A stretch of DNA of 62,984 nucleotides, filler included, from Reclinomonas americana ATCC 50394 (GCA_048213135.1; 6 parts of 2 records of this genome joined end to end with filler, not necessarily neighbours in it), one strand, 5' to 3'. Shown: positions 8,010-61,500, counted from the whole stretch's first letter. The notes: generated by a model from the letters alone, not told the origin. Program-made: numbers and translations.

Positions 8010-10014
8010 ATGAACGGGCATGAGCTGGAGCAGTTGCGCAACTCATACACTCAGTGGCATCCTCCATCTGATCATGACAGCTTTTGATAGGACTCCGGCC
8101 AATCGTTGGCGATTCTCAGTCGACACTGACTGTTGCGGTCTCTCTTTCACTCATGTATCTTATGATCTGTGAGAGTATGACGTTTATGTGTATGCAGCTG
8201 GCGTGGCCACTCGCGACGATGACTTGTACGACGAGGCGGAGATTGTCATTGGCACGAGGCGGTTCTTTTACCGGCACATGCGGACAGCTGATAAGCCGCG
8301 GTTTGTGTATGGCGCCTTTAGTGCTGTTCTCTGTGCTTACATAGCTGCGTTTACAGCGCCGTGGTGTTCATCCTGCATCCGTTCTCCGTGGTGCGCGCGC
8401 GCGTGATGCAAATATTCCGATTTGGGTTTTCTTGTTGTAGTGACATGTGTGTGGTGTGCGCAGTCGTCGTTTGAGCAAGGCCAGACTGCGCGCTGGTTCC
8501 AGCAGCGAGGTATGTGCGCTGGTGATTGTCGATAGCCTCTTAGTGCGTGATTCTGACTCTCTTGTCAGGCTGCGAGGTGTGTTGTCATGCGGCTGCATGA
8601 TTTCCGTCAGCACTCCTCACATGTCACGGCGTGCAGTGCTTCTCCTTGGACTCCATCGGACATGGGCGAACGGTTCGTCTCTTGCACAACGCTGGTGATG
8701 GTTGCCATGGCTCACTTGCACGTTGCAGGAGGGATGGGTGCAGATGATCCGCAACTGGCGCGAGCTGCGTGATGCGCACTGTGCGTTTGCAGAGGCACGA
8801 CTCGTTGAACGTTGCGTTGAGGAGGAGAAGAGGCCTGTCGCACTCTTCTGATCGTGTCTCTTGCGCGCAGACGCCGACCGCCTGAACGTGCCCGTGTTCG
8901 TCTACGGGTTTGTGTCTTTCTGTCTGTCTCCCTCCCTCTTGCATTCGTACTGCCAGCTGACGTCTCTTCTCAGCGCGTCCATGGGTGGTGCGCTGACGTT
9001 TCAAGTGAGCGCACACCTGGAGGCCATTGGTTGCGTGATGCGTCCTTATTTATGGTGCCTTGCTGCTGCATCGGAGCTGACTGTTCGTGCGCAGGTACCT
9101 TTGCGTCTCGGGGCGGTGGTGCCATCATGGCATCGCCGGCCTTCCGGCTGCCTGGTGCCCCGCGCGGATGCGTCTTGTCGACTCTGCGGTGAGCAAATGG
9201 ACGTGTGTGTTGTGCCTCCCTCGCTGTACGTGCGCCAACATTGACATCGTCGGTCAGTGCTGTGGCCGCCTGCTGTCCGTGCTGCGTGGTCACGCGCGAG
9301 AGCAACAGCAATCTGACACGCGATGCCGACAAGCTGGAACGCTTGCCCGACGTGTGGTACGCTCCGACCGCCGCTGCATGTGTACTGTAGAATGTGATTC
9401 TCACTCGTACACGCAGGGGCTACAAGATCAGCGGCGGTGCGTCCCACCTCCACCCCCGTCGGAAATAATAACTCACTCAAATCACGCAGGCGTCAAGGCC
9501 AGCACGGGCGCCTCGCTGATGGACATGGGTGCGGATTGCGTGAGCCGCTTCCACGAGTACACCTCTCCCTTTTTGATCTTTCACGGCACCGGTACGACGG
9601 TATCTTCTTGTCTGCCGCGCACTACATGAACTGAAGAACGCCGTGAATGACACAGGTGACCTCATGACGACCGCCACGGCATCGCAGGTGAGACAGGGCA
9701 AGGTTGTCACTGCGAGCCACTCTCGGGAGAAGCTCACAGTCGCACGCTGCCACAGGAAATGTTCGAGCAGGCGCGAACGCCCGCCGACGACAAACGCATC
9801 GTGCTGTTTGACGGCGCCTACCACGTGCTGTCCATTGAGCTGGACGAAGTCACCGATGTTGCGATGGCGGGCCAGGCGCAATTGGAAACGCCAACGACAC
9901 ACACTGACCTTGCTTGCCACGCAGGTGTACTGGCGAGAGATCGAGGAATTCATCGACAGACGAGTGGCAGCCGCACCGCCACCCACCGCCGGCGGAGATA
10001 GCGTAATCGAGTAA
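8010..10014 (+). CDS. Alpha/beta hydrolase, monoacylglycerol lipase/lysophospholipase (Hydrolase_4) family
   Basis: The spliced product contains AVVFILH, LDSIGHGRTEG, the nucleophile elbow VFVYGASMGG, LIFHGTGD and FDGAYHVL, giving a Ser-Asp-His triad. TAA at 10012-10014. The start codon is tentative. Confidence 0.85.
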
Positions 10015-10133
10015 TGCCGACATCTCATCACATCATCATCTTCGTTATGCAAACGGCGGGCAGCAGTGTGTAATATGAAGCCTACAAATTGTGAACATCT
10101 AACGCGCAAATCGATTTCCCCCCACAAGTCTCC

Positions 10134-11153: not shown

Positions 11154-11204
<51 letters not shown>

Positions 11205-11644
11205 CTCTCTCTCTCTCTCTCTCTCCATGCATTCCTCCTCGAGTCTGCATCTGCCTATTTGATTGCCTTTCCACATTCCCTTCTTCCTCCCCCCTCCCCA
11301 CTCCCTCTCTCTCTCCTCTCCCTCTCTCTCTCCCTACACACTCACCGCTTCGTGCACGTCTGCAAGCACTCAGTCTCCGAGCTGCTCAATCGCGATCCCA
11401 CCTTGCCCACGCACCGCTTCCAGCACGTCTTGGTAAACTGCAACTGCGCCATGTGATTCTGCTGCGCAACCTGCAACTGCATGCTCAGCTGCTGCAGCTC
11501 CTGCAAAAAAGAGAGGAGGGCGAAATGTTCAGCAAAACAAAACAAACACACACGCACGCACACGCGCGCAAACAACATGCATGTGTGTGAGTGTGAGAGA
11601 GTGTGCGCAACTCGCATGTCGCGTTCTGCTTGTGCGTTTGCCAT
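10134..11644 (-). CDS. Mitochondrial small Tim chaperone (Tim8/Tim13-like, twin CX3C)
   Basis: Three exons (11612-11644, 11346-11500, 10134-10209) give MANAQAERDMRELQQ...TKTCWKRCVGKVGSRLSSSETECLQTCTKRYWDT...ESH*. Confidence 0.85.
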
Positions 11645-11709
11645 TGTGTGACTGTGTGTTTATGTGTGTGTGTGTGTAAATTTCAGTGCCTTTGTGATTG
11701 TGTTGGATT

Positions 11710-11854
11710 ATGTCGTGGCGAGGTCGCTTGTCGCAAGGCTTGCAAGAGCTGCGCTTTGTGGCGTGTGGAGAGGGTGCGAGCAGCAAGGGCGTGAGGTGAG
11801 TGCACAGAGAGAGAGACGCTCAATGATGCGCAGTTACACACGCACAGAGGGAGG

Positions 11855-11941
<87 letters not shown>

Positions 11942-12477
11942 GACGACGTNNNNNNNNNNNNNNNNNNNNNNNNNNNNNNNNNNNNNNNNNNNNNNGAGAG
12001 AGGGAGAGAATGCGCGCAACTGTGACGCATGAACGGCACCAATGAAGGTGCACCCACGCACTCTCTCTCTCTCTCTCACTATCGCACACATCTTTGACAG
12101 TGATGCTTTCATTCACACTCACGTTTGTTGTTTTGTGTGTGCGTGTGTGTGTGCACGCGCGAAGGGACTTTGTGCAAAAGAACTACTCTGAGCTGCGGCT
12201 TCTCAACCCGGGAATGGGCCTGCGTGTGCGTGAGGCGGCAGGTGCTTCGCCGCAGGTGGTGGCCACGTTCAGTTGCGTTTGTGTGTGTGTATGAGAGAGA
12301 AAGAGAGAGCTCTGCACGCATGCGTCATCTGGATGCAGTCTCTGTGTTCTGCAGCCGTGCTGATTCTGCTGTGCCTTTGTTGCAGAGTCGGGCGATGAGC
12401 GTGCCGTCAGCCTGGCGAACCTGTCGGACGCCGAGGTCGGCGGTGTCATCAAGGGCTTTGCCGATGGCAAGGAATGA
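11710..12477 (+). CDS. NDUFA2: NADH:ubiquinone oxidoreductase subunit A2 (CI-B8)
   Basis: Three exons give MSWRGRLSQGLQELRFVACGEGASSKGVRDFVQKNYSELRLLNPGMGLRVREAAGASPQVVATFKSGDERAVSLANLSDAEV...GKE*, matching the CI-B8 pattern. Confidence 0.9.
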
Positions 12478-12606
12478 GTGTGTCCACTCGCTGGCTTCGT
12501 TGTTTGTGTGTGCATGTGTGCGTCGCAGTGAAGCGCATGTCGCCCACGTTTGCACTTCATTGTTTGCTCGTGTTCCCTGCATCATCATCATCGCCACCGT
12601 TGCATC

Positions 12607-21133
<8,527 letters not shown>

Positions 21134-21216: not shown

Positions 21217-25594
<4,378 letters not shown>

Positions 25595-40266: not shown

Positions 40267-42568
40267 ATGGCATTACCGTTTGCACTGGTGCTCTTCCTCG
40301 AGGGCGCTTCATCAGTGCTGGTGAGTGCCTTTTCCCAGTTGTTTGTCACTGATCACTTGCTCATTCTCCGACACAGTTGACAGTGATGCTTGCGCTTGCT
40401 GGTCAGCAGTCGTTTTTGTGTCACTCTGTGCTCTCATTGTTAACTCTCACTACTCATGCACAGGCATGTATCTCGTGTGGCGTCGATTGGTGCCCGATAA
40501 TCTGCCCAGCATCCTCTCAAAGCTCACTGTTGAAGGCATGCAATGCATGCGTTCATTGTTGTTCTCTTCGTGCGTCGTCCACTCATTCCTCTTGTGTAGT
40601 CACGTTGCCGTGCTTTGCTTTTGTAAAGGTTTCGCGCTCTTCTTATTCGGCATTGTCGTCGTCGTTGCCTCATGAACATGCATGCAGCTCGGTGCCAGTA
40701 TCAATCTCGACGAACTGCTGCGATTATGGGCCGTCTTTATCGCGCCACTGGTCGTGTGGGGTGAGGCAGCAGCAACACGATTGTTGTTCTGCTCGTTGGA
40801 TCGCTTTTTCACCTCATGCCACTGCACAGGTGTCACGTATGTGCTGGTGGCGCTAATCTTTCGCGTGTTCTGCCGCGTGCCCGATCGTGGACTGCAGAGC
40901 ATTCTCATGTGCAGTGTGCTGATGACCAACAATGGTGTGGCGACTGTGCTCGCCAACAGTCGTTCCAGTCGTTTTCTGTTTCTGATGTCGAGTGCGTCTC
41001 CACGCAGGCAATGTGCCGTTCGCCATGGTCGAGGTGATTGTCACCTCGGAGGTGTTCACCAGCGTCTTTGATCCCAGCCTGAATCTGCGCGATGTGGCCG
41101 CCGGCTACATCTCGTGCGTTGACTGTTGGCCACACGTGCACTCTGCGGTAGTTGTCTCACTTCTGTGTGCATGGCAGGGTTTATGTCATTCTCGGCGCTG
41201 TGGTCTGTGTGTCTGCGTGCCGTCTCCGTGTACCTCCATCGCTCGCCTCACGCGCTTCATCAGATGTACTGGACCATCGGTCTGAAGATGTTCAACAGCG
41301 GGGCCCCTCCGTCGAATGCGCCTCCCATCTCCTCGACTCTGCAAATGTCGCCGTCGATGCGGTACATTCGCGACAACGTGATGCCGACCATCAAGCTCAT
41401 TTTCAACGCACCCAACATTGGCCTCCTGACGGGCATTGTAGCGTTACGTCACTCCACCATCACGCAGTCGGAGATTGGGAGTTTACATTGAGATACAACA
41501 GGGGATGCATTGCTCCCGTTCGACAGTTCCTGTTTGTCAAGCCGCCGTACATCATCTCGGGCATCATGGGTGGTGTTCGGCTGGTGAGTCCGTGTCTTCT
41601 CTTGCCTCAAACGACTTGGTCTCACGCGCGAGAGAACCAGTTGAGCGATGCGATGATTGCGGTCGCCACGGTCAGCACAGGCGCAGGTACATACTTGCCT
41701 CCACGCCCCTTCCGCCTCCGTTACTCATCACTACCCCCCTTTCAGCACTGGCCCTCACTCTCCGACGACAGGCCGAAGAGCGGCGACACAAGCGAACGCA
41801 GGTTTGGATATTCAGCCAGGCGGTGTTTCCCTATCGCCTCTTGCTGATTTGCCTCTGTGAGCAGTCCTTTGTCAGCCAGCTGCCGGAGGTGGACGAAGTG
41901 GAGTTGACAGAGGTTGACTCGGAGCGGCCACAGCACGATGGCGAGGACCAGCATCACCACAGCGAGGACGACAAGAAGGATCTGCTTGCTCGCAGCCAGT
42001 CGGGGGCGAGTGTTGCCGCTCCGGCGACCGCCACAGCGCCGGCAGTTCTCCTCCTGTCGACTCGCGACATTTTCTGGAGCGTATTCGCCAAGCAGGTGCT
42101 CGTGCCCCTCGTCTTTGCACCGCTCGTGTATGGTACGTACTGTCGATCGGCAGCTGCTCCCTGTGTCGTACCTCGCTCACTCACTCACTGGAGCAGGGGT
42201 GTGGTGGCTCGGGGTGCTGCCGAGCGATCGGCTGCTGGTCTTCACGCTCATGCTGCAGGGAGCGGTGCCGAGTGCTGTTGCGTCTCGTTTGCTACCATTG
42301 TTCCATGCACACGTTTCTTCATTCATTCACTGACGTGTTGAGCGCAGGTCGTGCTGACCATCATGGCCGAGTTTGCTGGCTTTGGTCGCGCCGAAGTCTC
42401 GGTGCTCATGTTGTGGCAATATGCATCCACAGTTGTGTGTCCCTCCATGCGCATCTCATCTGCTGTAGAGAGATTGCCGACCTCACACTTCCTCCCTCCA
42501 TGCAGGTGATCCTGCTGCCGATCTGGTCTGCTGTGTTCCTCGCCATTGTGTCCACCATTCCGGCATGA
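40267..42568 (+). CDS. Auxin-efflux-carrier (AEC/Mem_trans) family transporter, PILS/ECM3-like
   Basis: About 15 exons with multiple TM helices. Motifs LSKLTVEVTLPCFAFVKLG, NNGNVPFAM, MYWTIG, FNAPNIG and LQGAVPSAVVL...EVSVLMLWQY. TGA ends 42568. Confidence 0.85.
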
Positions 42569-42638: not shown

Positions 42639-44557
42639 TCATGGCTGCTTTCGTGCGCGGCGAGCCTGAAGAAAAGCAGCAGCAGAGTAGAGTGCGTGCT
42701 GACAAAGTGAGCACACAGTGCCACGAGCGCGATCACAATGTAGATGCGGAACCTCTTTTGCAGCGGCCGCTTCCTCCTTCAGGAACTCGCGGCGCGTGTT
42801 CGACCGTGGCCCGGCATTGAAAACGCGACCGAACGACGGAAGCCACATGGGGTCGTCTTCGCCGCTGGTCGGTACACCCGCTGCGCGTGCACACTCCTTG
42901 TTCACACCACAAAATGCATCCACACATGAGAGCAGACAGCTGCACGCAACTGGCCTCCGCGAGCCTCTTGGCGCGCAGAAAATCGGCGCCGACGCGATTC
43001 GGCGGCAGCCTGGCTTGCCGCTCGGCCTGTTTCGCTGACGGTACGCGCGAGCCGAGACGCACACCACGTGGGGGCATGGTCGGTCCAATGACGGGTTGCT
43101 AACACGAAGAACGAAAAAAACACAGTCGCACGTGGGTTTAGGAACGAGTTCATCGACCACATTGCGTGTGGTAGGCAGGGTACGGTGGAAGAACGAAAAC
43201 AACAATCAAAAGGATACATCACGCGGCGTGGACGCACAATGGCGGAGGCCGGACGAAGCCACGGTGGTACTGAATCAGCGTCGTACACATTCTTCTCGCC
43301 GGAACCCAACTGGCGCGGACGCAGAGCAAACAGGCCTGGCCCTGAAGCACGCTGCGTGACCTTGCGCACGACTCCGTCTGTTGCGGCACGAAGGGGTCAG
43401 GTGTATGCGACGTTGGTGGCACTGAAACGCCACGCAACTCGCTGAGACACGAGGAGTGTATCGCTGGAAAATGCGCGTGCCCATGATCTCGGCCCCGCGA
43501 AAGTCATCCGACTGGTCGTCCAGGTCCAGCTCCCACGGGATCCACTGCGACTGTGTGGCCCCGTGATACTTGACCACACCTCCGCCCCACACACGCCGTC
43601 CCTCGTGCCAGCCAGTGGGGTTCTGCACCACGCCGTGCTCGTTGGTCACCGTATAGTACACTGCGTCGCAGTGAGCATGCCGCGGTGGGAAGAGATGAGG
43701 CAAGTACTGACCTATGGGAGCACGTCTGATGATCGGAGGGATGGCAATCGTGGTGGCCGTCGTCGTCGTCGTCGCAGTGGTGGTGGTGGTCGTCGTCGTC
43801 TTCCTGCTGTCCATCTCCTCACGCTGTTTCTCCTCGCGCTGCTTCTCCTCGTACTCCTCCACGGCCAGCAAGTACTGCAACGTCGGTGGGTGAGTCCCTG
43901 CCTCCCACCTCTCACCAAAACACACGGACCTCCACCCACTCGTCATCGTTCAAGTACTGCGCCTGTGCCCGATGCGAGCGTGGCTTGTTCTCCTTCCAGA
44001 ACGCATGCACCGAGGCCACATGCATCGCCGACGCCAAATGCTCCACAAAAGCAAAGCCAGGCACACGCTCCTGCTGCGTCGTCTTCTTCTCGTTCTTCTT
44101 GACCACCTTCATCTTCTTTTCCCCTTCCTCGTCCTCGTCCTCGTCTTCCTCTTCCTCGTGATCATCCAGTGCAGAGGCGTGCCGAAACACATCGCGTGCA
44201 CAAAACACGCAGTAGAATCGCTCACGAGCGCCATCGCCAGTCACCACTGGACCCTCTGCATTCCAATCATCATCATCAATCTCCGCCACTCTCTCTCACA
44301 CACACAGCGGCACTTTGGCGTCACTTGCCTGCACTGCGGAGAGCCTCGGTGCCCCACATGCGCAGAAAGTGCTGCGTGCGAGCCTCGTGCTTGCCGAGTA
44401 CACGCTCGACGGCGGCAACATGTGATGGAGTGAAGGCATGACCGCGCTCGGCAAAGCTCAGGCGACACACACTGCAGTAGACCAGTGCACCACCGCCACT
44501 GCCACCACGTTTTCGCACTCGTTTGCGTCGTTTCTTGGTCGCCTCGCCCTCGCTCAT
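42639..44557 (-). CDS. CENATAC: CENATAC (CCDC84), minor-spliceosome zinc-finger protein
   Basis: Two zinc fingers (CSVC...GHAFTPSH; FYCVFC...HLASAMH...FWKENK) and C-terminal motifs NV..DSVPPWL, VIGPT, LPPNRVGADF and WLPSFGRVFNAGPRSNTRREF. Confidence 0.9.
43208..43217 (-). promoter_or_regulatory. U12-type 5' splice-site consensus (GTATCCTTTT) inside a CENATAC intron
   Basis: Exact RTATCCTTT match 20 nt downstream of the GTGCGT donor at 43237. A branch-like TTCCTAAAC lies at 43144-43136. Function is inferred. Confidence 0.5.
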
Positions 44558-44616: not shown

Positions 44617-47600
44617 TTATGAGTGCTGATCATCATCGTCATCTTCCCTGGCAGTGAGGCGACTGGCTGGGGGTTCCACCACATGCACTGCACCGTGTTT
44701 CTTCCGCCTGCAGCAAGTGAAGGATGGTGAGACGCGCGCCAGCACGGTGAGGGATCACAAAGAAGCCGGGCGCAACATGAATGGTCTGCCGAGCTCATCG
44801 ACCACGTCCACGTGCTGCGCCAGCAGAGTGTGCAGATGACCGGGCGAGTGTTCGTGTCTCCGCCGTGTGCATCGGCACACCTTCGAGAACGCCCACTGCG
44901 ACACGACTCGGACGACCTCGATCAGGTCCTTCAAGCCTGCGGTCGAAAAACAACGATCAGCCTCCGCCGCTACCATCATTCGCAAGCCCACCGACTCCAC
45001 GTACCAATCACAAGCAACAGCAGCAGCACGAGAACCTCGCCCACTGTCAGGTGGTGACCCACATTGATGCGGCGGAGCAGTGTGCTCTTGGTCAGGTCGA
45101 TGCGCAGTTGCAGGTCGCCGCGCGACGGCACCGTGTTGCGATCGTAGAATGCGTCAGCGTGCATCAACCGCGTTGAGCTGGTAGTCACCGACCACATGCG
45201 ATACGAGCGCGAGAGCACTATGGCACAGCAGTGGTGAGTGCAAAGGACCGTGACATTGCAAACGAGCACGATGGAGACGTACTTGCACGGCACACCAACT
45301 TGTCGAGTCGAACAATGCTGCTGAGGAAGCCGGAGTTGCTGACCGCAGTGCACTGCTCGACAATGCTCGGCAGGAGCAGCATGCTCACTGCCAGCTCACC
45401 ACGCAGCAGCTTGCCGGGCGGCGGCTCAAACACGCCGCGCGTCCAACTACTCAACCAGTCAGTGTCACGCTTGCCCATGAAAGAGTGAGTGGGTTCGCTT
45501 ACCTTTCGACGCCATTCTTCTCGCTCTCCACCGCCGTCACGTTCAGCACCAAGCGCTGCACGTAGAGCGGCACCAGAGAGTCCTGACTGTGCATGTCCAT
45601 GACAAAGGAGCTGGCGGTGGCCAGAGCGTAGCCCTCCGAGAACGTCGTCAGCACATCACACGTGAAGGGACCTTCGCCTTCCACGGTTCGAATTACTGTG
45701 ACGACGCACGTGAGTGAATTCGGTAAACTCACAGAGCAAGCATTGCGGCGCAACTCTGTTCGGGTCGACAGTCGTCGGCCGATTGCACGCCCTCTCTACA
45801 CCCCGTCGTCTGCAACTGCACTGTGATGGACGAGCATGGAACATTCACGCCCTCCAGACGCAGTCGGATCTGCCACGGCAAACTCTCCACGTCGTGCACG
45901 ACCTCGCGAGGCTCCTGCGAGGAGGAGGATGGTCAGCGTGGCCATCACAACCAAGAGCAAGACACCGACAAGGTGCGACTCACAAACTCAGACACGGTGG
46001 CCAGCGAGGCCGACACCGAGTCATTGGCACCGCTCAGCATAAACGCCAGCATGAAAATGGCCAAGAAGAGCACAGAAATGTAAAACAGCAGGCTGGCCAG
46101 CGAGCCGCACACCGAGCTCCACTTGTACTTGCGGCGATTGGCAAACTCGGGCGTCTCGCCAATCTCGTCGTGCTCCGACTCCTGCACACCAACAACAACG
46201 AGTGAGAACACAAAGCATGCTTCGCAACAGGTGGGCGACCGTGCACACCTCGGACATGATGTTCATGGCCAGCAGAACGCTTTGCGTGCCCAGTTGCACG
46301 TTACGCAGCGTGCCGTCACGCCAGCGGAACGCAAACACACTGCAAGCCTTTCTCATGAGAGAGAGTTTTCCGCACACGACAGGCAAAGGCATGGTCGACG
46401 AAACGTAATCGTAAACATGGCCAGCCCCATCAGTGCAAACGAGAGCACGGGCAGGAAGCTGAGGAAGAAACTGTCTTCCACATTGACCTCTTCGGTAGGC
46501 TCCAACGGCTCTTCCGCATACTCAAAGCCCTCCTCCTCGATATCTAGCGGCTGCGCGCTGCCGGCAGGGCACGAATGCGAGTTGGGTGTGCACGCCAGGC
46601 ACGAGTCGGTGTACGACGAGCCCGTCGCCGGGTTGTAGGTGCCTTCGGGACACAGCTGGCATGCATCGAAGCCACTAGTCGGTTTGAATGTGCCCTGTCC
46701 ACATGGCACACACGAGTTCGCCAGCAGCTGCTGTCCCTTGGGGCACGCCTCTGCACATTCTGCGTGAGTCTTCCTCCCCTTCGTGCCCCCACGATGAGCA
46801 AAACGCAACGGAAGAACTTGACATCGTACAGCGACAGCGTAGCGTCTTGCGAGGTGACGAGGAATGTGTCGGAGAGGCCGCTGGTGGAGGCACGCACATT
46901 GTACGGGGACTGGAAGTAGGCCGGATAGTTCTGGCTGGGCGCCGAAGCATCGAGCTCCACCCATCGCCGCGCCTCGCCACGCGAGAATAGCCGCAGTTGC
47001 GCAGACTTGCCCTGCTGTACCGAGCCCGTAGAGCTGACCAGCAGCGTATCGTATGGTTCCGAGTAGGACAGCTGCGAGCCGAAATTCACGAGTCCGTGGT
47101 CGCGCGACGTGAAATTCTGCACCAAAGTACCGGCCGGATTCTGCTCAATGGTGTAGGCCAGCACAGAGTTTTGCGTGGCGAACCCCACAGCAATGTCGGA
47201 GGTGCCAACCAGTTCCACCGACGTGGCGCAGGCGGTGGCGTTGGTGCGAATCTGCGCGGCCACCGACAGCGACCCGTCGGCCGCCACATCCAGCACCATG
47301 ACCTCGGAGACCACGATGAAGCTGCGATACGAGGCCTGCTTCGGCGCGCAATACGTGCACTGCGCATAGGCCGTGCGACTGCCACGCGCCGTCAACGCCG
47401 TGATGACGGTCTGGCCCTGGCAGAAGCGCGGCGGCACACTTTGCAGTCGCGCCTGCAAACGAGCCTGCGAGCGCGCAGTCGCTGCTGCCACTGTCGTGGT
47501 CGTGCCGAGAGTGGTCGAAGTGGACGAAGTTGTCTGTGTCGAGTTGGTGACGGCGACGAGTGCCTGCACGTAACCGTCAGTGATGCACAACTAAAGGGGA

Positions 47601-49228
47601 ATCCGTGCGCACACACCTCTGCGGCAACAGCGGGCTGCTTCACATGTGCGGTGGCGGCCGGCGCCTTGAACAGAGGCTTCTTGAGCTGGTCGGCGCGCGA
47701 CTCGTGGCACCGCAACTGAGGGCGTGCACAAGGGCGCGTAAGGGGGTGATGACGATCGGCGACAGGTGCGGTGAAACGACGCAACTCCCGACGAGGTCAC
47801 CGAGCACACACACAATGGCCATTGATTCGTGTCGTACACTTGGCGCACGTCGCCAGCACACGAGCTGACCGCAAATGAATCGCCAAGTTTTACGTGCAAT
47901 CCCAGAGTGCAGTTGGCGGCCGCCAATCCACAGTCCGCCTCCTGTCATTGTCAGCCAGTGTTTAGCACCCCTTACAATCATCACTCCAGGAAGCAGGCGC
48001 CTCGCAACTGTGAACGAATACGAAGCCGAGCACGCCTTTTCCGCGTCGTGGTTCATGGCCGCTCGCGGTTCGGCACTCACCAACTCGGCAAAGTCCTCCG
48101 TCATGGCATTGTAAAAGTCGTCGTCGTCTTCGTCATCGTCTGTCGCATCGGCGCCGTTCGCGTGCGGACTGGCGGAGGAGGACGACACGGTCAGTGGCGA
48201 CGCCGAAGTGACCGACACGGCAGTGGCACACAGGCTGGTGTCGATCAGCTGCAAATGGCCAAGTGAGAATACAGGGAGCATGGATGTTTGATGCCTCGCA
48301 CGTACCTCGACGTAGCCGTAGGCACCGGCGCTGCCTGTGAGTCCATGCTGCGAACCGACTGCCGCAAGTGCCAGTGGCGCCGAGCCACCCACCGGCGTCA
48401 CCTTGTGCACGTGCACCGACACGCCATACGTGGGATCGCCGGGCTTGCGCAACACCGTGCGCCATTTCCACACATCGGGCGTGCCAGCCACACCCGCCAC
48501 CCGCCGCACCGTGGTCGGCGATGTCTCCGTTTCCACCGCCGCCTCCACCGCGGTGGACACTGCCGGAGTCGATACCGGCATGGCCACAGTTCTCAAATCC
48601 TCATCCACTCGCTGCTTGCCACTCGTCGGCGGCGGCGGTGGTGGTGACGACGACGATGGCTGCTGCTGCTGCTGTTGCATGACTGGCATGTCCAGCATAT
48701 CAGCATCGGCCACAGCCGGCGACTGCACCGCCAGCACCGGACTCGGCGCCGAAGCTGCCGCAGACGACGCAGCAGCCGTCGTACGACTATGCTGATGATC
48801 GCCACTCATCTCACCCACGCGATCCGCCTGCTCCTCCTCCTCAAACGACACCTGCAACAGCACCGCCGGCGACAACTCATTCTCCGTCGCGCCTCGTCGC
48901 TGCTGCTGCTGATCATCACTATCCGAGTCACGCGACGACAAGGGCGGGGCGGTGGGCGGAGGCGCCACCACACGCTGATAGAGAATCACTTGCCCGCCGA
49001 GTCGCAGCTGATTGTTGACCGATTCAGCCGCCGTCACACCAATTACTGCGAATTCGTCGCCCACACTCGCCGCCACGTGTTCCCCTGTGCAATTCATTGC
49101 TGAGAACAAGCGCGAGTGTGACTATGAGTGTGTGTTGATCACTCACCACTCACACACACAATCATCGACAAGAACAGCATCAAAAGAAGCCATGTTGGCG
49201 CGCAAACTTGACTTCTTGTCTCTCTCAT
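44617..49228 (-). CDS. Large membrane protein: signal peptide, beta-rich ectodomain, Cys-rich GCC2/GCC3 (ephrin-receptor-like) repeat, about 3 TM helices
   Basis: Signal peptide MRETRSQVCAPTWLLLMLFLSMIVCVSG; CVPCGQGTFKPTSGFDACQLCPEGTYNPATGSSYTDSCLAC; hydrophobic segments near 46400-46470, 46040-46110 and 45010-45045. Some internal boundaries are uncertain. Confidence 0.7.
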
Positions 49229-49781: not shown

Positions 49782-50519
49782 ATGCGGTGGACGAAGCGTG
49801 AGCCGCGCATTGCGTCACGCAAGGCGTCGGAACGCGCTCGGCTTGCGCGCGCCTGCCAGCTCATGTGCCCTCTCAACGATCACGAGGTGTTCATGTACTC
49901 GGGGCATCGCAACGACCTCGCCGAGCTGTACACGGATGCGGTGCTGCTTGACACAGGTGCGGGCATGTGAGAATGCATGACAGGGCAGTTTGTGCATCAA
50001 TCATGACTGTATTTTTTTCGTGCTAGTCTCTGGCAAGGCCGAGTTTGTGTGGACCAGTGGAGTATCGGTGGGCTTCCGCAGCGATACGCACTTGGTTCGT
50101 GTCGGCGACAATCGGCTCTTCATGTACGGTGGCAAGACGGCCAAGTCTGGCTTTGGTGGCAGTTTATACGTGGCCAATGCGGCGTTGGCCGATGCGTTTG
50201 TCTTGCGGCGTGTGGTGAAGGAGGAAGGTGATGAGGAGGACGAAGAGGAGGAGGAGGGCGCGGAGGGCGGCGAGGATGCGGGCAAGCCACAGTGGGTGTG
50301 GGAGGCTGTCGAGTTTTCGGGTGACTCCCCAGGGCCGCGTCGTGGTCACTCGCTGACGGCACTCGACGATCATCGTGTGGTGCTGTTTGGTGGCGACAAT
50401 GTGCCTGCCGATGTCTTCTTGTTTGACTTGAGTTGCGCCAAGCCACCCCGCCGACTGTGTGTGATGTCGCAGCTGACCGCTCATGATCGACAGACACCAT
50501 GAGGTGTGAACGCAAGGTT
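49782..50519 (+). CDS. Kelch-repeat protein, 3'-truncated by a scaffold gap
   Basis: Motifs EVFMYSG, NRLFMYGG and PGPRRGHSLTALDDHRVVLFGG...FLFDLNTMR. The start is tentative. Confidence 0.8.
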
Positions 50520-50619
50520 NNNNNNNNNNNNNNNNNNNNNNNNNNNNNNNNNNNNNNNNNNNNTTAATTAATTAANNNNNNNNNNNNNNNNNNNNNNNNN
50601 NNNNNNNNNNNNNNNNNNN

Positions 50620-53600
50620 CACGCCTCCAGCACTCGGAGCGCGTGCGGCGCTTCCAGGTGGAGGTGGTGGCGGCGGTGGAGGCGGAGGAGGCGGCGGTGG
50701 CACTCCCTGCGCGTTGACATGACCCGGCGCAGATGGTGGTGGTGGTGGCGGTGGTGGTGGCGGCGGTGGGGGTGGTGGAATCGACTGATCCGAACCTCCC
50801 GGTGGTGGAGGCGGTGGTGGAGGGGGTGGCGGTGGTGGTGGCGGAATCGAATCGTCCGAACCTCCAGGTGGTGGTGGTGGCGGTGGTGGCGGTGGAGGAG
50901 GTGGTGGAGGAGGCGGCGGCGGTATGTCGTCTCCATCGACGCCAATGGGTGGTGGCGGCGGCGGTGGTGGAGGTGGAGGCGGGATGACCGAGCCCGATGC
51001 CATGGCAACTGCTGCGGCAGTAGCCGGCGTGCCAGACATGGGCGGCGGCGGAGGCGGAATGGCGGCACCCGACGGCGACGGCGGCACGACTGATGAAGGA
51101 ATCATGAATAAAAATCGTCGTACAACCAGACAATCAATGAAAGACTCACGTGAGTGCAAGAAAGATGGCGCCGTGCGGCGACCCTCTTCAATTCCGGCTT
51201 CGTAGGCCAGCCTCGTCACCAGCGTAATGGCATCGCGCGCCAATTGTCCAAGCTGCGAGAATACTCAGTCATGCGATCTTTCGAGGGGAGGGAAGGCGAA
51301 CGAAACTTGGCTCTTGACTTGCAAACGCTGCAGCATTTCGCAAGTCTCACTGAATTCATGCTTGAACTTGTCCATCGTCAGCTGCTGCAGGCGCTCCATA
51401 ACAATGCGCTCCTGCGCGTTGACAATGTCCAGCTCCTGCACCTTCTTCCGCTCGTCATTCAACGCCTGCTCCAGCTCCTCAATGCGCACAGTGCGATCGT
51501 CCATGTCGTCGACATCGTCACCATCGCCGCTGCTCAGCGTCTTGCCGATGAAGCGGCCGATCACCTTCAGGCGGCCCATGCGCTCCTCTTCCCGACTGGC
51601 AGTGAGAGGGAGGAGAAGAAATGTGAGATGGGGGGTGAAGAGGATGGAATGGGAAGGGAGAAAAGATGATGGAAGAAAGAAGATGAGAGAGAGAGAGAGA
51701 GAGACACACACACACACAGATTGAGAGAGAGAGAGAAGGAAAAAGATGAGATCGGCAAGAAAAAAGAACGAGAGAAGAGAGCACGAAGAAAGAGAGAACG
51801 AGAGAAGAAGCGCGAATGAGAGTGACCCACACAGACAAAGAGAGGAGATCGGAAAGGATGAAGACGAAAGTGAGAGAGAGAGAGAGAGAAAGAGAGAAGA
51901 AAGAGAGAGAGGGAGGAGAGACACACACATAGACAAAGAGAGGAGACCGGAAAAACGATGAAGGAACGAGAGAGAGAAGAACGCACCAGAGAGAGAGAGA
52001 GAAAGCACGACAGAGAGAGAGAGACACACACACACACACAACAAAAGAGAGGAGACCGGAAAAAACGATGAAGGAAACGAGAGAGAGTGAAGACCGCATC
52101 AAAGAGAGATTGAAAAAGAGACACACATACACACACTCTGCTCGAAAGAGAGAGAATGGCTATTCTCATTTCATCCACGCAACTCATAATCCGTCTGCGA
52201 CAACTGGTAGATGCCCTGCAGGATGTCCAAGAACACACCGCGTGCCTCGCGCGACTGCTCGAAACGGCGAGCAATCACTTCACTGATTTGCACGGGGTCC
52301 TCCACGTCGACCTCGTCCTCGTCCTCTTCCTCCATCAGCTCGTCTTCCAGCGCGTCCAAATGACTCTCGAACGCCTGGCCAGCATCCTCAATGGCTCGGA
52401 GGCTCTGCACGACAGCAACAACGGATCAGTCTTGCGGGGAGATGCAAGCGACTGCAAGGAAAAGACGCAACCCCGATAATGTCCATAATGTCGAGCTTCT
52501 CAAACTCCTTCTTCAGCTTGCCACGCATATTGCCGCTGACGTTGATGAACACGTTGATGAATGTCATGCAGGCGATCTTGAACTCGGCGTCGTCCACACT
52601 CTTGAGCGCGTTCAGCAGCGTCTGGAACCGGAACTTTTCGCGCTTCACCAGCGCAAAATGATCAATGGCATCCAGGGCCAGCCAAAAGATGCCCTGTCCC
52701 TCGTCCTTCTTGCGCCTATGCAAAAATGGTAGAGCGAGTGAATACGCCATCCAGCAAGAGAACGACGAGAGAGCGGAGACACACCAGATGACGACAAAGA
52801 GCAGGCGGAGCACTTGCGTCTTGACGCGGACGTTGGGGTAGTCGAACACGAGGAAGAGCTTTTGAAGACTCTTGGAGTAGGCCAGGAACTTTTCGAGGCC
52901 CGACTGCGTGTCGACAATCTGCTGAATGCAGGAGACGGCGCCGAGAAGCACTCCGCGGTCCTCCTCACTGTGCGGCGCCGTTGGTGAGACATGCCGACAA
53001 GGAGACAGAAAAGGCAACACAAGAACGCAACATGGGCTTCATCTCCTCGTCGCCCATGACGTGGAACAGTTCCTCGAGACCTGCGGGCGAGTGAGTCAAT
53101 GCTGAGGAAGGGAGGCAAAGTGATAGAGGAAAACACAAACCACCGGCATCCAGGAACTGGTTGACCCAGGAGAGCGGACGACTGCGAAGCTCCTGTTGCA
53201 CAGGGAGGTGAGGCATGAACAGGGNNNNNNNNNNNNNNNNNNNNNNNNNNNNNNNNNNNNNNNNNNNNTTAATTAATTAANNNNNNNNNNNNNNNNNNNN
53301 NNNNNNNNNNNNNNNNNNNNNNNNTGGATGGGAGACAGGAAAGGTCAAACGCACCTGGTGCAAGGCCTGCACTGTTTCCGCCGGCACCGGGCGCTGACGC
53401 AGCGAGTTGAGGAAGAACTCGGGGCGCTTCTTCACCGACGAGTTATCCTCGGCTGTCTGCTTCCGCTGCAGCTTCATCATTGTCATCTTCCTGGTGGTGT
53501 GCACGGGGGGGACCAGGCGGCGTCAGACAATAGGAGAAGGGTAGCGAAGGGAAGGAGATGAATTCTTCAGAGCACTACTTCTACGAGCATGTGAGCGTCA

Positions 53601-55071: not shown

Positions 55072-58000
55072 TCATCTCTCCGCCTCCACCGTCACCGAAA
55101 ACGGCACTGCCTCCCCGGCGCGGAACTGCAGTGGAATCTCCACGAACCGCTTGCCACTGGCGGCGGTGACTGACAACGCCGAGGACCGCACACGGACCGT
55201 AACCACCCTCACTGTCGGCGTGTCGACAGCCACATGCACCGTCAGCGTGCCGTCCAACACTGCTCGATAGACGCCGTCGACACTGCCGTGTGCGCCAGTG
55301 ACCTCCAGCGACAAGAGCGGCGAGTCGAAACGAGCACCAATCGCCACCACTTGTGTGACATCCACACGAAAGCCGTCGCCCTCCGGCGCCGGTTCCACGC
55401 CGAACGAACGCTGCAGTGCCAGCAGAAACATGGCGTCGGGGTTCATGTTGGCCACGGGAAAATCCGTCATTGGCGTCACCGGGCTGGCCCACGTGCCGCC
55501 CGGATAGCACTTGGGTGCTGGAGTGCACGAGCTTATCGAACCGTCGGGCCCGCCCAGCACGCTGACCCACACAGTGGGGAACGCGGTGGCGTGCGTCGCA
55601 TACAGGTGCTTGACGAGAGTGGGGAAGAACAGCGCCGGGCGCAGGGCAGACAGGCTCCACGTCAGCAACTGGCTGATGGCCGGCCACACCTGCCCGCCGG
55701 GACTGCACGCACGAAAAGGTGAGGAAGTGCGTGTGAATGCACCGTGACTGCAAAAACATGAAGACGCACGCTAATCTTGGTCCAATCGGAGAGTCAGCGT
55801 CGAGTTGCTGCACGACAATGTCGACCAGCTGCTGCGCCTGCGCCTCGGTGAGCAGCGAGAATTCCTCGTCCTGGCTCATGGCCAACAACAGCGGCCACAC
55901 TTGACTCTCGAGCGACACGAATGACTTGCTGTCGTTGAGATCGTCAATGCCGTACAGGTAGGCACGGTCGAGGGCATTGTAGAGCCACGCCCGGCCGAAC
56001 CAGCGGCCACCAAAAGTGGCGCGTACGGGATCAAGGAGGGTGCGACAAAAGTCCACCATCGACGAGGCCAATTGTTGCGCATCTGCGCGAGGAGAGCGAC
56101 GAAGAATGGCGGCCATGCGCGGCAACACCCACAATGCCATTTGCGTATTCGGCATCGACTCGCCGTGCTCTTCGGTGAAGGCCACAGCCAGCGGATCGGG
56201 GTCGGTCAGCGAGATCGCATCGTTCCAATCACCGCTGCGCACTCGCAAACAGCCGTGAGGTCCTCGCCCCACCACCTCCGTGAGGTGCGCAAACGCCGCC
56301 TTGACGTGACTAAGCACGGTGTAGTCGGTGGCGCCGGGCGGTAACTCTGTGGAGTTGGCCGGATAGAACGGAACCTCGGTGGTATACAAGAATGCCGAGT
56401 CGCCCGTCATGCTGATCCACTGCGACACTGGCGATGAGTGCGACAATCATGCAAAGGAGGAGAACTGCTTCTTGGCACCTCAGTCAGCGCCCACAACACG
56501 TAAATGTCGAGGTCGGACGGCGTCGCGTGCAAGCCGAGAGCATCCGATGTCACGCCGTGGCCGTGATACGAGTAGGCAACTTTGCATCACGATGTGAGCG
56601 CTTGAGATTTCACACGCACACACGCAAGCAATGACGGCACCACAGACCTTGGCCGGTGCGCGCATCTCGCACACTCATGATGAGCTGGAGGCTCTCGCGC
56701 GCCAACTGCGGCATCATGGTGATGGTCGGCAAGATAAACAAGGCCACATCGCGCGGCACACCGTCGACTCCGTGCAAGTACAGATATGCGCTGCCTTGGG
56801 TGATGGAATGCAGTTGCGAGTAGTCGTGAAAGACGGACGCGGCGAGCAGCGAGTGTGAGCGCCACAATGCCTCGGCCTGAATGCGCTCGCTCTCCTGTTT
56901 GGCGAGCCACATTGGGTGATGCAAGACGTTGCGGAAGTCAGAGAAGGAGCGACGAAACTTGCGGCGTGAGCGACGGGGTGGCGGGTAGCGAGACGCGCAG
57001 CAGTACCGACTTCCACTCAGCAAGGCAGTCGGGCAGGGAGTAGGAGCGATACCGATTCGCCAGCGCGTCGATCGCCCCTATCGTGTACCCTTCAGGCAAA
57101 TACCCAAACAGGAAGCGCAAGACGACGCGTTGTCCGGGGGCCAGCGTGACACGATGCCGCACGGCAAGCATGGCCGGCTGACCCATCGCAGGCGTGTCAG
57201 CAGGGAGCAGGCGCGACGGGCGGCGGTCGCGCACGGCCACGGGACTGGCGGGTGTGGAGCCGCGATCGAAAAAGTAGCGCTGGTCACCAAACACCGCATC
57301 GACGGGCACCTGCTCCGATAGCAGCGTGAGGAAGATGTCGGGTGGATAGTAATCCTCGCCGCTGATCTCCTCGCGACCTGGCGGCGGCGGCGACAGACCA
57401 GGACGCGGCCGCATGGAGGCCACGAGCGTGGCGTTGTTGTTGCTGGCCTCCACCGACTGAACGAAGCGATCGTTGAAGCGATCACGCAGCAGGTTGCCGG
57501 GCTCAGCAGCCTCGCCCGTTCGTATCCACTGCGTGGGGAGGAGTCGCCTGGTGAGAAGCACGGTGGTGGAGTGGGTGGGGAGGAGTGGCGGCGCGCAACT
57601 TCAGCCTGCAACTGGTGTCGATTGACATCAAAGTACTCGTAGTGGTCAAACGACAACTCGCGCTGCCCGTCCGTGTTGACCAGCTCGACCTCGTCGAGAA
57701 GCACCGGGTCATCGCCATACACCGGATACAGCGTGTGCGACACTGTCAGCGGCACTTCGCCGCCGAAAGCCGTGCTGGTGCGGAAGTAACCCAGGCCAAA
57801 GCGCCTCGAGGTGGTCGCATTGAGCGGAGCATAACTGCAGCACCGATGAGATCAAGTGGTCAACGAAGAAAGAAGTTGGTACGCGGTGAGAGAGACGCAA
57901 CATGTGCGCCGAGCACAGCACGCGGTCGTTCACATGCAAGTAGCTGAATCCACCGGCGAGGTTGAACTGTGCCTCGTCGAAGCGATTGGCCCACGTGGGT

Positions 58001-58470
58001 CCGCGCTCGCCGAACAACACTTGCACATAGCCCTTGTCCACAGCCATCATGTTCAGACGCTGATTGCCCAGCATATGGAAGTGATCTGTGTGAAGGAGAT
58101 GGGGGTTTATCAGGAATGAGAAAGGAGGGAGCAAGGGAGAAGGAGAGAGCGCGGGGCACCATTGCGCTTGAGAAACTCGGGGAAAATGTCTTGCGAGTTT
58201 GGCCAGAATGCACGCGGATCGACGCGTTCATCCAGAGTCCACTCAAAGGCGGGAAGATCGCCCTCTGACAGTGCGTGCGTGCGAAGAGGGTGTGTGAGAT
58301 GAAAGGAGACAAACACACACACACACACACAAGAGAGACAAGAGACCATCGGTGATCCATGCGCCAAAGATGCTGTTGTTGTCTCCGTGTGCGTGACATG
58401 ATGATAATGATGATGCAGAGAGAACGAGGAGCGAGAGGAGAGCAACGATAATGGCAAGCTGTCGCTGCAT
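55072..58470 (-). CDS. GH94-like (alpha/alpha)6 glycoside phosphorylase/hydrolase with a signal peptide
   Basis: Signal peptide MQRQLAIIVALLSLLVLSASSLSSCHA; motifs HMLGNQRL, RRFGLGYF, PRDVAL, SDLDIYVLWALTEWISMTGDSAFL, GPHGCLRVRSGDWND, HGES, GRWFGRA and LESQVW. Confidence 0.8.
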
Positions 58471-58517
58471 TCACTCGGCAATCACAATCACAGTTGTCGG
58501 GTTTGTCCGGGCCTCTG

Positions 58518-61500
58518 TCACCGCTCGTCGTCAATGCGACGGATCTTGTGCTGGTGTCGCATGCGGTATGGGTCGTTGGCAGAGGATCCTGACGCGGAGT
58601 GGCGTGAAGGGCCGAATTCGTCAATGGCGTCTTCGTCGGCACGACGCTTGCGATCTGTGCGTCGAGTGCAGTCAGGCATCTGTCGATGCATGCACGATGA
58701 AAAGGCGACGCAACTGTCACGTCCGCTGGAGGAGCGTGAGGAGGTGGGCGATCGACTCCGAGAACGCGAGTGCTGCGACGATGAACAATAAGTGAAGGGG
58801 AGGGAGGGAGCGACAAGAGAAAGCAAGTGACGCACCGATCCGCGTGTGTATGCCGACCCAGACGAGGCGGCAGGAGCATTTGCCGATGGTGGTGGCGGGT
58901 GCGGTGGGTGAACAGCGGCAGCGCTGCTCGGGCCGGCGGCTGTGGGGAATTGTGGCTGAATGTTGAGGCTGCGCAGCGTGGCCACCAGCATGCCCACGTT
59001 GGCCGTCGGTCCGCCGTACATGCCCGACGGAGGCAGAGCGCGCAGCAGGCGGGCCACAGCGTCTGGCAGCGGCAGTGGTTGTCGCCCCGGAGGTCCGCCA
59101 GCGGCCTGCAGAAGCAATGAGCAAAGGAGGAAGAGAACAAGATGTGAGGAAGAATGTCTTTGTGCGCAACTGGCTGGCGCACGGAGGCTCCAACTGTTGA
59201 TGGGGGTGCACCAGCAGGTGCTATGGCCGGTCGACCGAGCTCTCCCGGTCGTGCGAGGGTGAGTCTGTGTGAGTGCACGCAGCGAAGAGGGTAAGCAGGT
59301 CAAGAACAAGGAAAAGCAAGGATCTCAGCAAAAGCGAGAGAGAGAGAGAGCACCAAGAACCCGCACACACGCACGCACACAGGAATGGCAACTGAGGAGA
59401 CAACACACCACACAAAGAGTCTCTGTTCCCACACCCTTCCTCTCCCTCTGCCTCAACTTGGCGGCTGTTCGACTGTCCACAAACGTCAGGAGCGAGAAAT
59501 CCGGCTTTATCACTGAGCGCAGAGGCGGTCGAATGATGGCCGCCTCCTCTTGTCGCAACACTGTCCACACCACAGTGAGTTTGCGAGAATACAGGATTGC
59601 ACGCCCGATCGCAACACACCTTCCTCGGGGCGACGAGAGCGCCACGAGTCCGCCAGGTCTGGAAATGCGCAAGTTGAATGTCAGAATTCACCAACACACA
59701 CTGGCAGTGTCCACGAACATACGCTCACCCATGACGCGCAGCTGCGCAGCACTGGTCGGCCACAACTCGTGATAACGGAGACGATGAATCACGCTGCGGA
59801 TGCCGCTTGGAGCTGCAGTGCGGTGAGACAATCATACAAGCGGCGCAGACCAGCGACCAAAACAAACACACACCAAGTTGTGGGAAATCACGAGCTCGAC
59901 GCGCCTCCAACCGCGCCACCGCCGTCGGGTCGTTGCTACACATGCGTTCCAGATCAATGTATCGATTCCACAGCGGCAGCGAGTGCTCTCGTGGCATGGT
60001 CTTCAACACGCTCTCAAACAAGGCACGGGCATCTGCAAAAGAAAAAATGAGATGCGTACAGAGACAAGAGAGAGTGTGAGAAACAAAAGTGCACGAAACT
60101 CTGATCGTTGGCTGTGCGGATGAGAAAATCCGCATATTGCAGCACATATTCCGGATCGGCGCCGTGCGTCTTCATGCCGGCCTCGAACACGTTGGTGGCT
60201 GCTTGCACATCCTTGTTGATGTTGACCTCCATCAACGCTGCGCAGAATTGGAGAATGAGGGGCCACGAGAAGATGATGACAACGAGGAGTTGAGGCATAC
60301 CCGCGGCGACATATACATCGGGTGATTTGCACACTTTCCTTGCCTGCACAAACACCTTGCGCGATGCCGTAACTCCCTGCATGACAGTCGCAGGAACATG
60401 TGAGACAGCGTGCATCATGGCAACGAAGACGGCGGTCTCACCTCTGTCCGCAGCGTGAAACGCTGGAAATGAATGTACATGAGCGGATCGGGGGCGTCTT
60501 CGGCCTTGACAAAGTACCTCGTGAACACGTTTTTCGCTTTCTGCGCGACATGGCATTAGCACAGATGACAATTGCACTTGTAGCAAGTCCGCCACACCTC
60601 ATTGGCACGCTCGGTCTCGAAGAATTCCACAGCGGCCAAGTGCAGCAGCACGTTGGTTGGGTGTGCCACAAGCGCTCGCTCAAAGATCTGTTCGGCTTCG
60701 TCACGCGACGACTGTCGCATGGCGGCGGCGTACCTGGTAGGAGGGGGGCAGGAGAGGGGAGGGAGAAGGAGGAAAGGGGAGAAGGAGAGGGGGAGGGGGA
60801 GGGAGAAGGGGAAGGAGAAGGGGAGGGAGAAGAGGAATGCGAAGGGGGGAGAAGGGTGAGAAGGAGGGAAAAGAGGTAAGTGGATTGACAAGGAGACAGA
60901 GTCGTGTGCAAAGAATATGGATGAGAGAGACACAAGGTGTGCATGTGGTCGAAGACAGATAGTAGCGCAGTGTGTTGGTGTGGGATTCGAGAGGTGAGCG
61001 TGCACGGGAGCAGAGACCAGCGTGCTGCGAATGAGAGGCAGCAAGATGCTAGAGAGTGTTGTGGAGACGATGTACGCAGTACGCAAGAGCCGTGTGTTGC
61101 AAGCGCAATGAGCAACAGAATTGAGTGCGTAGTGCGTGGAAGCAAAAGAGCTGGGTGCTGGACACGGTACGAGCGAGAGGCGTGCAGTGTACCAGAGACA
61201 GCGAGATGTCAGCAGATGGTTCGAGAAAGTAAGCAGAATTGAGTGCGTAGTGCGTGGAAGCAAAAGAACTGGGTGCTGGACACGGTACGAGCGAGACAGC
61301 GAGTAAGTCAGCGGAAGGTTCGAGAAAGTACGCAAAGTTGAGTGCGCAGTGTGTGGAAGCAAACGAGCTGTGTGCTGGACAGGTGCGACCGAGACAGCGA
61401 GTAAGTCAGCGGAAGGTTCGAGAAAGTAAGCAGAGTTGGGTGTGAAATGTGAATCAGGCTCGAGAATAGACAACAAGCGCAATATGGTGGCGAGGGCTTC

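Follow-up and report, generated by a model that had tools for sequence, protein, structure and literature searches.

In human cells, a shifted register of pairing between a 5' splice site and U1 small nuclear RNA (snRNA) is a rare exception, known from few sites that were tested one at a time. The passages of Tan et al. (2016, PMC4856993) that bear on it, citing Roca and Krainer (2009), treat shifted (+1) register 5' splice sites as established and use ACA|GUCAAGUAUA as a shifted-register test oligonucleotide. In other lineages it is the U1 5' end itself that differs, and the relevant parts of one report (bioRxiv 10.1101/2022.06.08.495308) give it as ACAAAC in Entamoeba and ACGUAC in Mastigamoeba, with both standard and modified forms in Physarum. 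Here we describe 5' splice sites (donors) that read GTTGCG in a 62,984-base stretch of DNA from Reclinomonas americana ATCC 50394 (GCA_048213135.1), hereafter the window. In these donors the intronic motif lies one base deeper than usual, and the last exon base (position -1) is almost never G.

As in the human shifted (+1) sites, to judge from those passages of PMC4856993, the donors have GT at the cleavage site, a motif one base downstream and an exon end that is not G, and a pairing of intron G+1 with U1 position C9 is proposed; unlike the human sites, their core is GCGU rather than AAGU, and they make up ~19-24% of predicted donors. They also share with bulge (+2/+3) register sites (Roca et al. 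2012, as cited in PMC4856993) an extra nucleotide after GT, and GTTGCG can be drawn with a bulged U. The Entamoeba donor GUUUGU and the donors of Mastigamoeba, as presented in parts of bioRxiv 10.1101/2022.06.08.495308, are likewise unusual motifs used genome-wide, and the canonical consensus in the window, GTGCGT with C at +4, resembles that of the +4C lineages treated there. In the altered-U1 lineages covered by those parts, however, a single motif has supplanted the standard one and is read in the normal register, whereas here the two motifs, one base apart in position, occur together within the same genes. A full-text literature search found GTTGCG or GUUGCG nowhere named as a splice donor, although logos in figures are unsearchable and a description in a genome paper is possible, and the literature on the shifted register together with splice sites and snRNA yielded no genome rich in such sites. 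What we rate as new is the proposed use of a known shifted register with a GC-type core in about a fifth of donors.

Introns were called with our own hidden Markov gene finder, trained on the window itself and built from a three-periodic coding model, explicit GT...AG intron edges, branch-site and acceptor matrices and, later, an intron-length model. Its donor term scores intron position +3 onward only, never exon bases -3 to -1, and uses whichever is highest of three values, from a canonical matrix, from that matrix displaced by one base behind GTT, and from a floor. Each strand was given its own forward-backward posteriors, and the sites counted are those inside gene models of the higher-scoring strand. 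We call a donor firm at a posterior >=0.5 in a strand-consistent gene model and use a posterior >=0.8 for the association table; probable donors combine a good branch site with a good acceptor but are located in untranslated regions or beside gaps, or are rivalled by an in-frame alternative. A signal-only scan of all GT sites was dominated by GT microsatellites and was left out of the final counts. From the window the model learned CTSAY as the branch site, CAG as the acceptor and 67 nucleotides (nt) as the median intron length. At a posterior >=0.5 the model predicts 157 donors, of which 30 read GTTGCG and 7 read GTTTCGT or GTTGTGT; this offset class (37/157) has a share of ~19-24%, or about one fifth.

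GTTGCG occurs 71 times on the two strands, compared with 48.9 expected, a count reached in 1 of 100 shuffles, and GTTGCGT occurs 30 times where 10.8 are expected. When every GT was given an equal donor score, GTTGCG was the top hexamer, with a posterior mass of 19.3, followed by GTGCGT (11.7) and GTGAGT (8.6). Counting either strand, predicted donors account for 22/30 GTTGCGT sites, 19/110 GTGCGT sites, 14/71 GTGAGT sites and 8/21 GTACGT sites. Introns that begin with GTTGCG have the same median length as the others (67 in both classes), and 30/30 of them end in a CAG acceptor. We conclude that GTTGCG sites are real donors of ordinary major-spliceosome introns.

The 71 sites divide into 30 firm donors (-1 base: A9 C7 G2 T12), 11 probable donors (A6 C2 G0 T3) and 30 non-donors (A11 C6 G3 T10). 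The first-pass annotation of this DNA had read 35 GTTGCG donors between 8033 and 58714, with -1 bases of A14 T11 C8 G2, and had named 9030 and 52471 as the only cases of G; in that interval we count 33 (25 firm and 8 probable; A13 T10 C8 G2) and recover both G cases and no others. Its statement that ordinary donors mostly follow G also holds, and its observation is thereby confirmed. The donors are as follows, each with the last exon base before it; P0001 is a metagenome protein and P0004, P0005 and P0006 are homologues of the AIF gene.

Firm GTTGCG donors:
1404..1409, plus strand, after T; posterior 1.0, 84-nt intron
2221..2226, plus strand, after A; posterior 0.95
2649..2654, plus strand, after T; posterior 1.0
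6563..6568, minus strand, after C, less certain; posterior 0.67
8132..8137, plus strand, after T, less certain; posterior 0.70
9030..9035, plus strand, after G, an exception, the G being the first base of a Gly codon in a lipase-like gene; posterior 1.0
9858..9863, plus strand, GTTGCGA after T; posterior 0.99, upstream exon matches monoglyceride lipase as far as its final residues
16171..16176, minus strand, after C; posterior 0.96
19218..19223, minus strand, after C; posterior 0.99, 201-nt intron with a microsatellite
21944..21949, minus strand, after T, tail of the calnexin gene; posterior 0.99
30297..30302, plus strand, GTTGCGC after A; posterior 0.98
30926..30931, minus strand, after C, last intron of the AIF gene; posterior 1.0, beyond the end of the homologue alignment
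31280..31285, minus strand, after T, AIF gene; posterior 1.0, gapless against P0004, P0005 and P0006
33508..33513, minus strand, after C, AIF gene; posterior 1.0, LPYMR|PPLSKELW gapless against homologues
36388..36393, minus strand, after C; posterior 1.0
37752..37757, minus strand, after T; posterior 1.0
42277..42282, plus strand, after T; posterior 1.0
42945..42950, minus strand, after A; posterior 0.99
43433..43438, minus strand, after A, less certain; posterior 0.78
44771..44776, minus strand, GTTGCGC after T; posterior 0.93
45749..45754, minus strand, GTTGCGC after A, less certain; posterior 0.66
46804..46809, minus strand, after C; posterior 0.99
47780..47785, minus strand, after A; posterior 0.97
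48003..48008, minus strand, GTTGCGA after A; posterior 0.95 with the intron-length model, rival in-frame GTGAGT at 48080
52466..52471, minus strand, after G, an exception, formin gene; posterior 1.0, Pfam FH3 match breaks off where the exon ends and continues in the following one
53026..53031, minus strand, after T, formin gene; posterior 1.0, Pfam GBD profile positions continue across the junction
57594..57599, minus strand, GTTGCGC after A, GH94-like gene; posterior 0.99, HQLQAE|WIRTG gapless against P0001
57896..57901, minus strand, after T, GH94-like gene; posterior 1.0, gapless against P0001
58709..58714, minus strand, after A; posterior 0.87
62600..62605, minus strand, after T, CstF77 gene; posterior 0.97, flanking exons map to 2ooe_A

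Probable and possible GTTGCG donors:
5545..5550, minus strand, probable GTTGCGA after T; strong branch site and acceptor 74 nt downstream, posterior 0.11
8811..8816, plus strand, probable, after C; signal score 11.0, posterior 0.03, rival in-frame GTGCGT at 8781
11606..11611, minus strand, probable GTTGCGC after A, directly after ATG CGA of a small Tim-like open reading frame (ORF); signal score 7.7
12272..12277, plus strand, probable, after A, outside the kept gene models; posterior 0.72
20869..20874, minus strand, probable, after A; signal score 7.3
34698..34703, minus strand, probable, after C; posterior 0.39, signal score 8.2
46223..46228, minus strand, possible GTTGCGA after T; signal score 11.6, posterior 0, model favours GTGTGC at 46248
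50432..50437, plus strand, probable GTTGCGC after A, beside an N run; signal score 8.3
52178..52183, minus strand, probable, after A; formin Pfam FH3 match stops at this base, signal score 9.1
59165..59170, minus strand, probable GTTGCGC after A; signal score 10.8, posterior 0.10
59610..59615, minus strand, possible GTTGCGA after T; signal score 10.0

Other donors of the offset class:
16882..16888, minus strand, GTTTCGT after T; posterior 0.99
46398..46404, minus strand, GTTTCGT after C; posterior 0.99
51300..51306, minus strand, GTTTCGT after A; posterior 0.96
56952..56958, minus strand, GTTTCGT after A, GH94-like gene; posterior 0.99, adjoins an 8-residue gap in the alignment with P0001
60093..60099, minus strand, GTTTCGT after A; posterior 0.99
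22566..22572, minus strand, GTTGTGT after C; posterior 0.99, 218-nt intron
42432..42438, plus strand, GTTGTGT after A, less certain; posterior 0.60

The association that had been claimed between the -1 base and the class of donor is present among the window's predicted introns. At a posterior >=0.8, G stands at -1 in 46/63 GTNNGT donors and 23/28 weak donors, compared with 2/26 GTTGCG donors and 0/6 GTTTCGT or GTTGTGT (GTTKYGT) donors (Fisher's test, GTNNGT against GTTGCG, p=1e-8; p=1.7e-10 with both offset classes pooled). It appears in each of the three intron phases, with -1 G in 27/33, 11/17 and 8/13 canonical donors and in 1/16, 1/10 and 0/6 offset donors. Apart from the offset class, donors in the window conform to canonical U1 pairing with exon compensation, in which a weaker intron side goes with more frequent AG at the exon end; the weak donors have A at -2 in 15/28 cases and, as above, mostly G at -1. 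The GTTGCG class breaks this rule despite deviating from the canonical intron motif. The contrast is sharpest among donors that begin with GTT, where the canonical-register donors mirror the GTTGCG class: those with G at +5 (GTTTGT, GTTCGT, GTTAGT, GTTGGT and others; e.g., 8301, 8908, 29804, 53140 and 15830) have G at -1 in 10/10 cases and those with G at +6 in 2/37 (p=1.3e-8); three odd GTT-starting donors have it in 3/3. The -1 G therefore tracks the position of the intronic core and not T+3. U1-type exon-side pairing clearly operates in R. americana.

Could the association be an artefact of gene prediction? The introns are predicted rather than RNA-verified, the first model placed at least one weak donor wrongly (at 58213 rather than 58159), and the donor model contains an explicit option of GTT plus the matrix. 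Exon positions -3 to -1 are nevertheless outside the donor score, and a donor-blind run, with the same score for every GT, gave the same contrast (-1 G in 20/27 against 2/17, p=1.2e-4). So did the 16 homology-checked junctions described below (11/12 against 0/4, p=0.003, with 32818 among the 12), and the independent count of the first-pass annotation agrees. Given these three lines of evidence, we consider an artefact extremely improbable.

Standard U1 has the 5' end ACUUACCU. In the shifted register that we propose for the offset donors, this end would pair one position upstream of normal, such that intron G+1 would sit opposite C9, where exon G-1 normally lies, and the -1 base of the exon would move to the weakly constrained -2 place opposite U10. 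U+2 would form a single mismatch, and positions +3 to +7 would pair as +2 to +6 normally do. Cleavage would remain at GT, with the donor motif one base deeper in the intron, N|GTTGCGT instead of G|GTGCGT. We further propose that the U+2 mismatch costs stability and that only the strongest core (GCGT) is therefore tolerated.

Two features of such a register are seen in the offset class. The motif is displaced by one base after the cleavage GT, with the conserved G at +6, not +5, in 38 predicted donors, and the -1 base behaves like the canonical -2 base, showing no preference for G (2/32). The -1 profile of 32 offset donors (A10 C8 G2 T12) does not differ from the -2 profile of canonical and weak donors (A32 C25 G12 T22; chi-square p=0.44) and differs sharply from the canonical -1 profile (p=2e-10). 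Expressed as the log-likelihood of those 32 bases, the canonical -2 profile gives -42.2, coding background -51.2 and the canonical -1 profile -70.1. A bulged T in the normal register would keep -1 opposite C9, and this arrangement, which favours and so predicts G there, is rejected on that last value and on the counts (-1 G in 2/37 offset donors, compared with 46/63 canonical donors and 10/10 canonical GTT donors). The earlier preference for a true register shift over a bulged T thus stands as far as the bulge is rejected and -1 resembles the canonical -2; it is not borne out at positions -2 and -3, which are uninformative, or by the GCG core, which standard U1 leaves unexplained. We regard a shifted U1 register as the best-fitting explanation of GTTGCG donors, tentatively and with a probability somewhat short of even, and infer that the reader is U1, bound in that shifted position.

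Several results weigh against a plain shift, on the exon side and in the intron core alike. The counts are confined to a single 63-kb window and to introns that were predicted; residue-level comparison with homologues covered 16 donors (15 full junctions). The shifted model fits no better than coding background at position -2 (log-likelihood -43.7 versus -42.6) and worse at -3 (-46.4 versus -40.4). T is the base found most often at -1 (12/30), and neither C9 nor U10 pairs with it; A is enriched at -1 relative to some nulls only (9/30, p=0.06-0.57; 15/41, p=0.002-0.22). In any register, GUUGCGU and the standard U1 5' end reach a nearest-neighbour energy of only -1 to -3 kcal/mol, with -1 G unpenalised. 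With that 5' end, which may not be the host's, the best duplex for -1 A is the shifted one, at only -2.2 kcal/mol, and with -1 G a canonical GGU stem wins.

The -1 base may instead reflect background composition, with no exon-side pairing at all, if the extra T is bulged or looped out or if another factor, such as a protein or U6, reads GCGT. The -1 bases of the firm donors resemble those before the 489 non-donor GTTG sites (A109 C115 G60 T205; G 12%) and those before non-donor GTTGCG sites, where T is also common and G precedes 3/30, and positions -2 and -3 fit background equally well or better than the shifted model. Within exons, G precedes GTTG in 17/96 cases (18%), such that GGTTG is rare everywhere (12-18%) and -1 G is not clearly below the k-mer background; with nulls of 10-15% G, the 2/41 observed gives p ~0.04-0.2. 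GT and GTT microsatellites skew this k-mer background, however, with GTGTGTG present 235 times and GTTGTTG 32 times in the window, and relative to codon-position composition G is depleted (2/32 where 35% is expected, p=1.7e-4). In addition, every other donor class relies heavily on -1 G, including the canonical GTT donors, and a bulged donor would be expected to need the support of -1 G more, not less. We consider an absence of exon pairing rather unlikely. Whether G at -1 is actively avoided depends on the null chosen, and such avoidance is unproven; of the earlier claim that the last coding base is freed from the need to be G, the part that stands is the missing preference for G.

In the core, the dinucleotide at +4/+5 of the offset donors is GC in 30, TC in 5, GT in 2 and CC in 1 of 38, giving C at +5 in 36/38, whereas canonical donors vary (GC 25, GA 19, AC 12, GT 12 and others of 92) and have C at +4 in 40/92. 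The class is largely limited to GTT[G/T]CG, and the counterparts of the common donors GTGAGT and GTACGT shifted by one base are never used (GTTGAGT 0/3, GTTACGT 0/2), nor is GTTAAGT (0/1). Since C+5 would face pseudouridine 5 of standard U1, where A would pair better than C, a plain shift leaves the requirement for C unexplained. This raises the alternative that GUUGCGU is matched at every base by a U1 5' end peculiar to the lineage, or by a second U1 variant, and that the apparent shift is the normal register of a dedicated snRNA. Such a variant might carry A in the usual C8 place, or a G/C pair opposite the GC core, with -1 facing a base that does not favour G. It would suit a class as common as 37/157 predicted donors, and a core that is far more uniform than the canonical one and whose C standard U1 would mismatch; a hypothetical GC-matched 5' end, used for illustration, gives -10.1 kcal/mol for A|GUUGCGU and -10.0 kcal/mol for A|GUGCGU. 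The altered 5' ends of Entamoeba, Mastigamoeba and Physarum, as given in parts of bioRxiv 10.1101/2022.06.08.495308, are precedents, yet according to the same parts Thecamonas and Mamiellales, which prefer +4C, keep a standard U1, and it is on these two grounds that a variant U1 stays a live rival. A variant that retained C9 and C8 would favour -1 G again. Altogether we judge a variant U1 to be improbable, though a serious contender.

In a more far-reaching reading, two donor codes would operate side by side in the same genes, N|GUUGCGU being recognized by a U1-type snRNA 5' end that is dedicated to it or has been remodelled, or by U1 and U6 if each binds one base off. If true, this would account for the near-invariant core, for C at a U1 mismatch and for an exon end freed from G; we hold it to be unlikely. 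Rfam at gathering thresholds found 0 RNA families in the whole window, hence no snRNA.

Comparison with homologues places many of these junctions at the level of residues. The spliced GH94-like gene aligns end to end with P0001 at 47% identity over ~900 residues and is gapless at donors 58159, 57901, 57599, 56647, 56478 and 55769; donor 56958 (A|GTTTCGT) is outside the verified set because of the 8-residue alignment gap that adjoins it. For the AIF gene, the alignment to P0004, P0005 and P0006 (44-57% identity) is gapless at donors 33513, 33279, 32944, 31853, 31675, 31550, 31478, 31285 and 31106, while 32818 is supported on the donor side only because its intron enters an N run. Four GTTGCG junctions are thus gapless at residue resolution (57901, 57599, 33513 and 31285), and another three (62605, 53031 and 52471) agree to within a few residues. 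In chain 2ooe_A, the CstF77 exons around 62605 correspond to residues as far as 94 on one side and from 103 onward on the other, which implies a predicted loop 3 residues shorter and not a 22-residue read-through. The exon before donor 9858 ends with a conserved C-terminal lipase motif, and the exon downstream gave no lipase match in a single-exon PDB search. Junction support from Pfam, run on 150 exon-sized ORFs, is coarse. A word-indexed protein search matched three GH94-like proteins; such searches with the CstF77 exon and with a 493-amino-acid exon gave no matches. A cluster look-up of five AIF homologues named one source, a choanoflagellate transcriptome protein.

The AIF gene also contains a 7-nt micro-exon, TGTGGAG (31479-31485, minus strand), between two 65-nt introns (donors 31550 and 31478). 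Both introns have their own branch site and CAG acceptor, and the spliced product, GRRRVEHHDHA, is gapless against three homologues.

The GH94-like gene (55072-58264, minus strand) has 7 spliceosomal introns, two with GTTGCG donors and one with a GTTTCGT donor. The N-terminus of P0001 looks like a lipoprotein-type signal. This suggests that the GH94-like gene is of bacterial origin; if so, its introns, offset donors included, would be gains. Such gains, together with the unusually uniform donor heptamer, raise the possibility that a mobile introner element, equipped with a 5' end of its own, has been copied to give the GTTGCG introns, in which case the -1 base would reflect insertion-site preference. 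In an all-versus-all blastn comparison of the 157 introns, however, there were 0 matches between different GTTGCG introns (E<=0.01), and matches were of microsatellites only; the lengths and acceptors of GTTGCG introns are also the same as those of other introns. Introner copies are accordingly very improbable as the source of the pattern, and we rule such elements out for lack of similarity along the intron.

U12-type (minor) introns are marked by the donor [AG]TATCCTT and a TCCTTAAC-type branch site. This type is likewise ruled out for introns that combine a GTTGCG donor with the CTSAY branch site and CAG acceptor of the other introns in the window. Since GTTGCG introns share no sequence beyond their donor, and have the length and acceptor of the rest, they represent neither a mobile family nor minor-spliceosome introns.

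If R. americana does use a shifted register for about one fifth of its introns, its genome would be a natural large-scale experiment, which could reveal by what means U1, followed by U6, sets the point of cleavage and to what extent splicing constrains the last exon base; the shifted donors here follow codon bases that cannot or need not be G. The offset donors in an apparently bacterial-origin gene with gained introns could, in addition, show how new donor motifs spread. Gene finders with a single donor matrix will mis-call such introns, and our first model chose longer in-frame alternatives at several sites.

The window as a whole is intron-rich eukaryotic DNA with multi-exon genes and introns of ~67 nt, and it contains 22 N runs totalling 6,489 N. 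Scans of metagenomes for related loci found no relative. Long ORFs matched by Pfam comprise calnexin, an AIF-type oxidoreductase, two Methyltransf_16 ORFs, a CCDC84-like ORF, an ephrin-receptor-like repeat protein, a Kelch protein, a formin (GBD/FH3), the GH94-like enzyme, CstF77 and a monoglyceride-lipase-like hydrolase. Joins of 100 bases, made up of 44 N, TTAATTAATTAA and 44 N, are assembly linkers with stop codons in all frames, and lie at the following positions.

6637-6736, assembly linker
21653-21752, assembly linker
37156-37255, assembly linker
50520-50619, assembly linker
53225-53324, assembly linker

Other N runs, of 740-890 bases, break up genes, for example the AIF gene at 32244-32605. 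Two adjacent ORFs at 36446-38881 (minus strand) both match the lysine methyltransferase family Methyltransf_16, with an assembly join between them, and may be a tandem pair. The ORF at 42642-43205 (minus strand) matches the end of the CCDC84 family, one member of which acts with the minor spliceosome in human cells. The small cysteine-motif ORF at ~11300-11611 (minus strand) is Tim9/10-like by eye and may carry a GTTGCGC intron right behind its ATG CGA, and the GTTGCG sites at 12020 and 54364 are also preceded by contexts of ATG plus a few bases.

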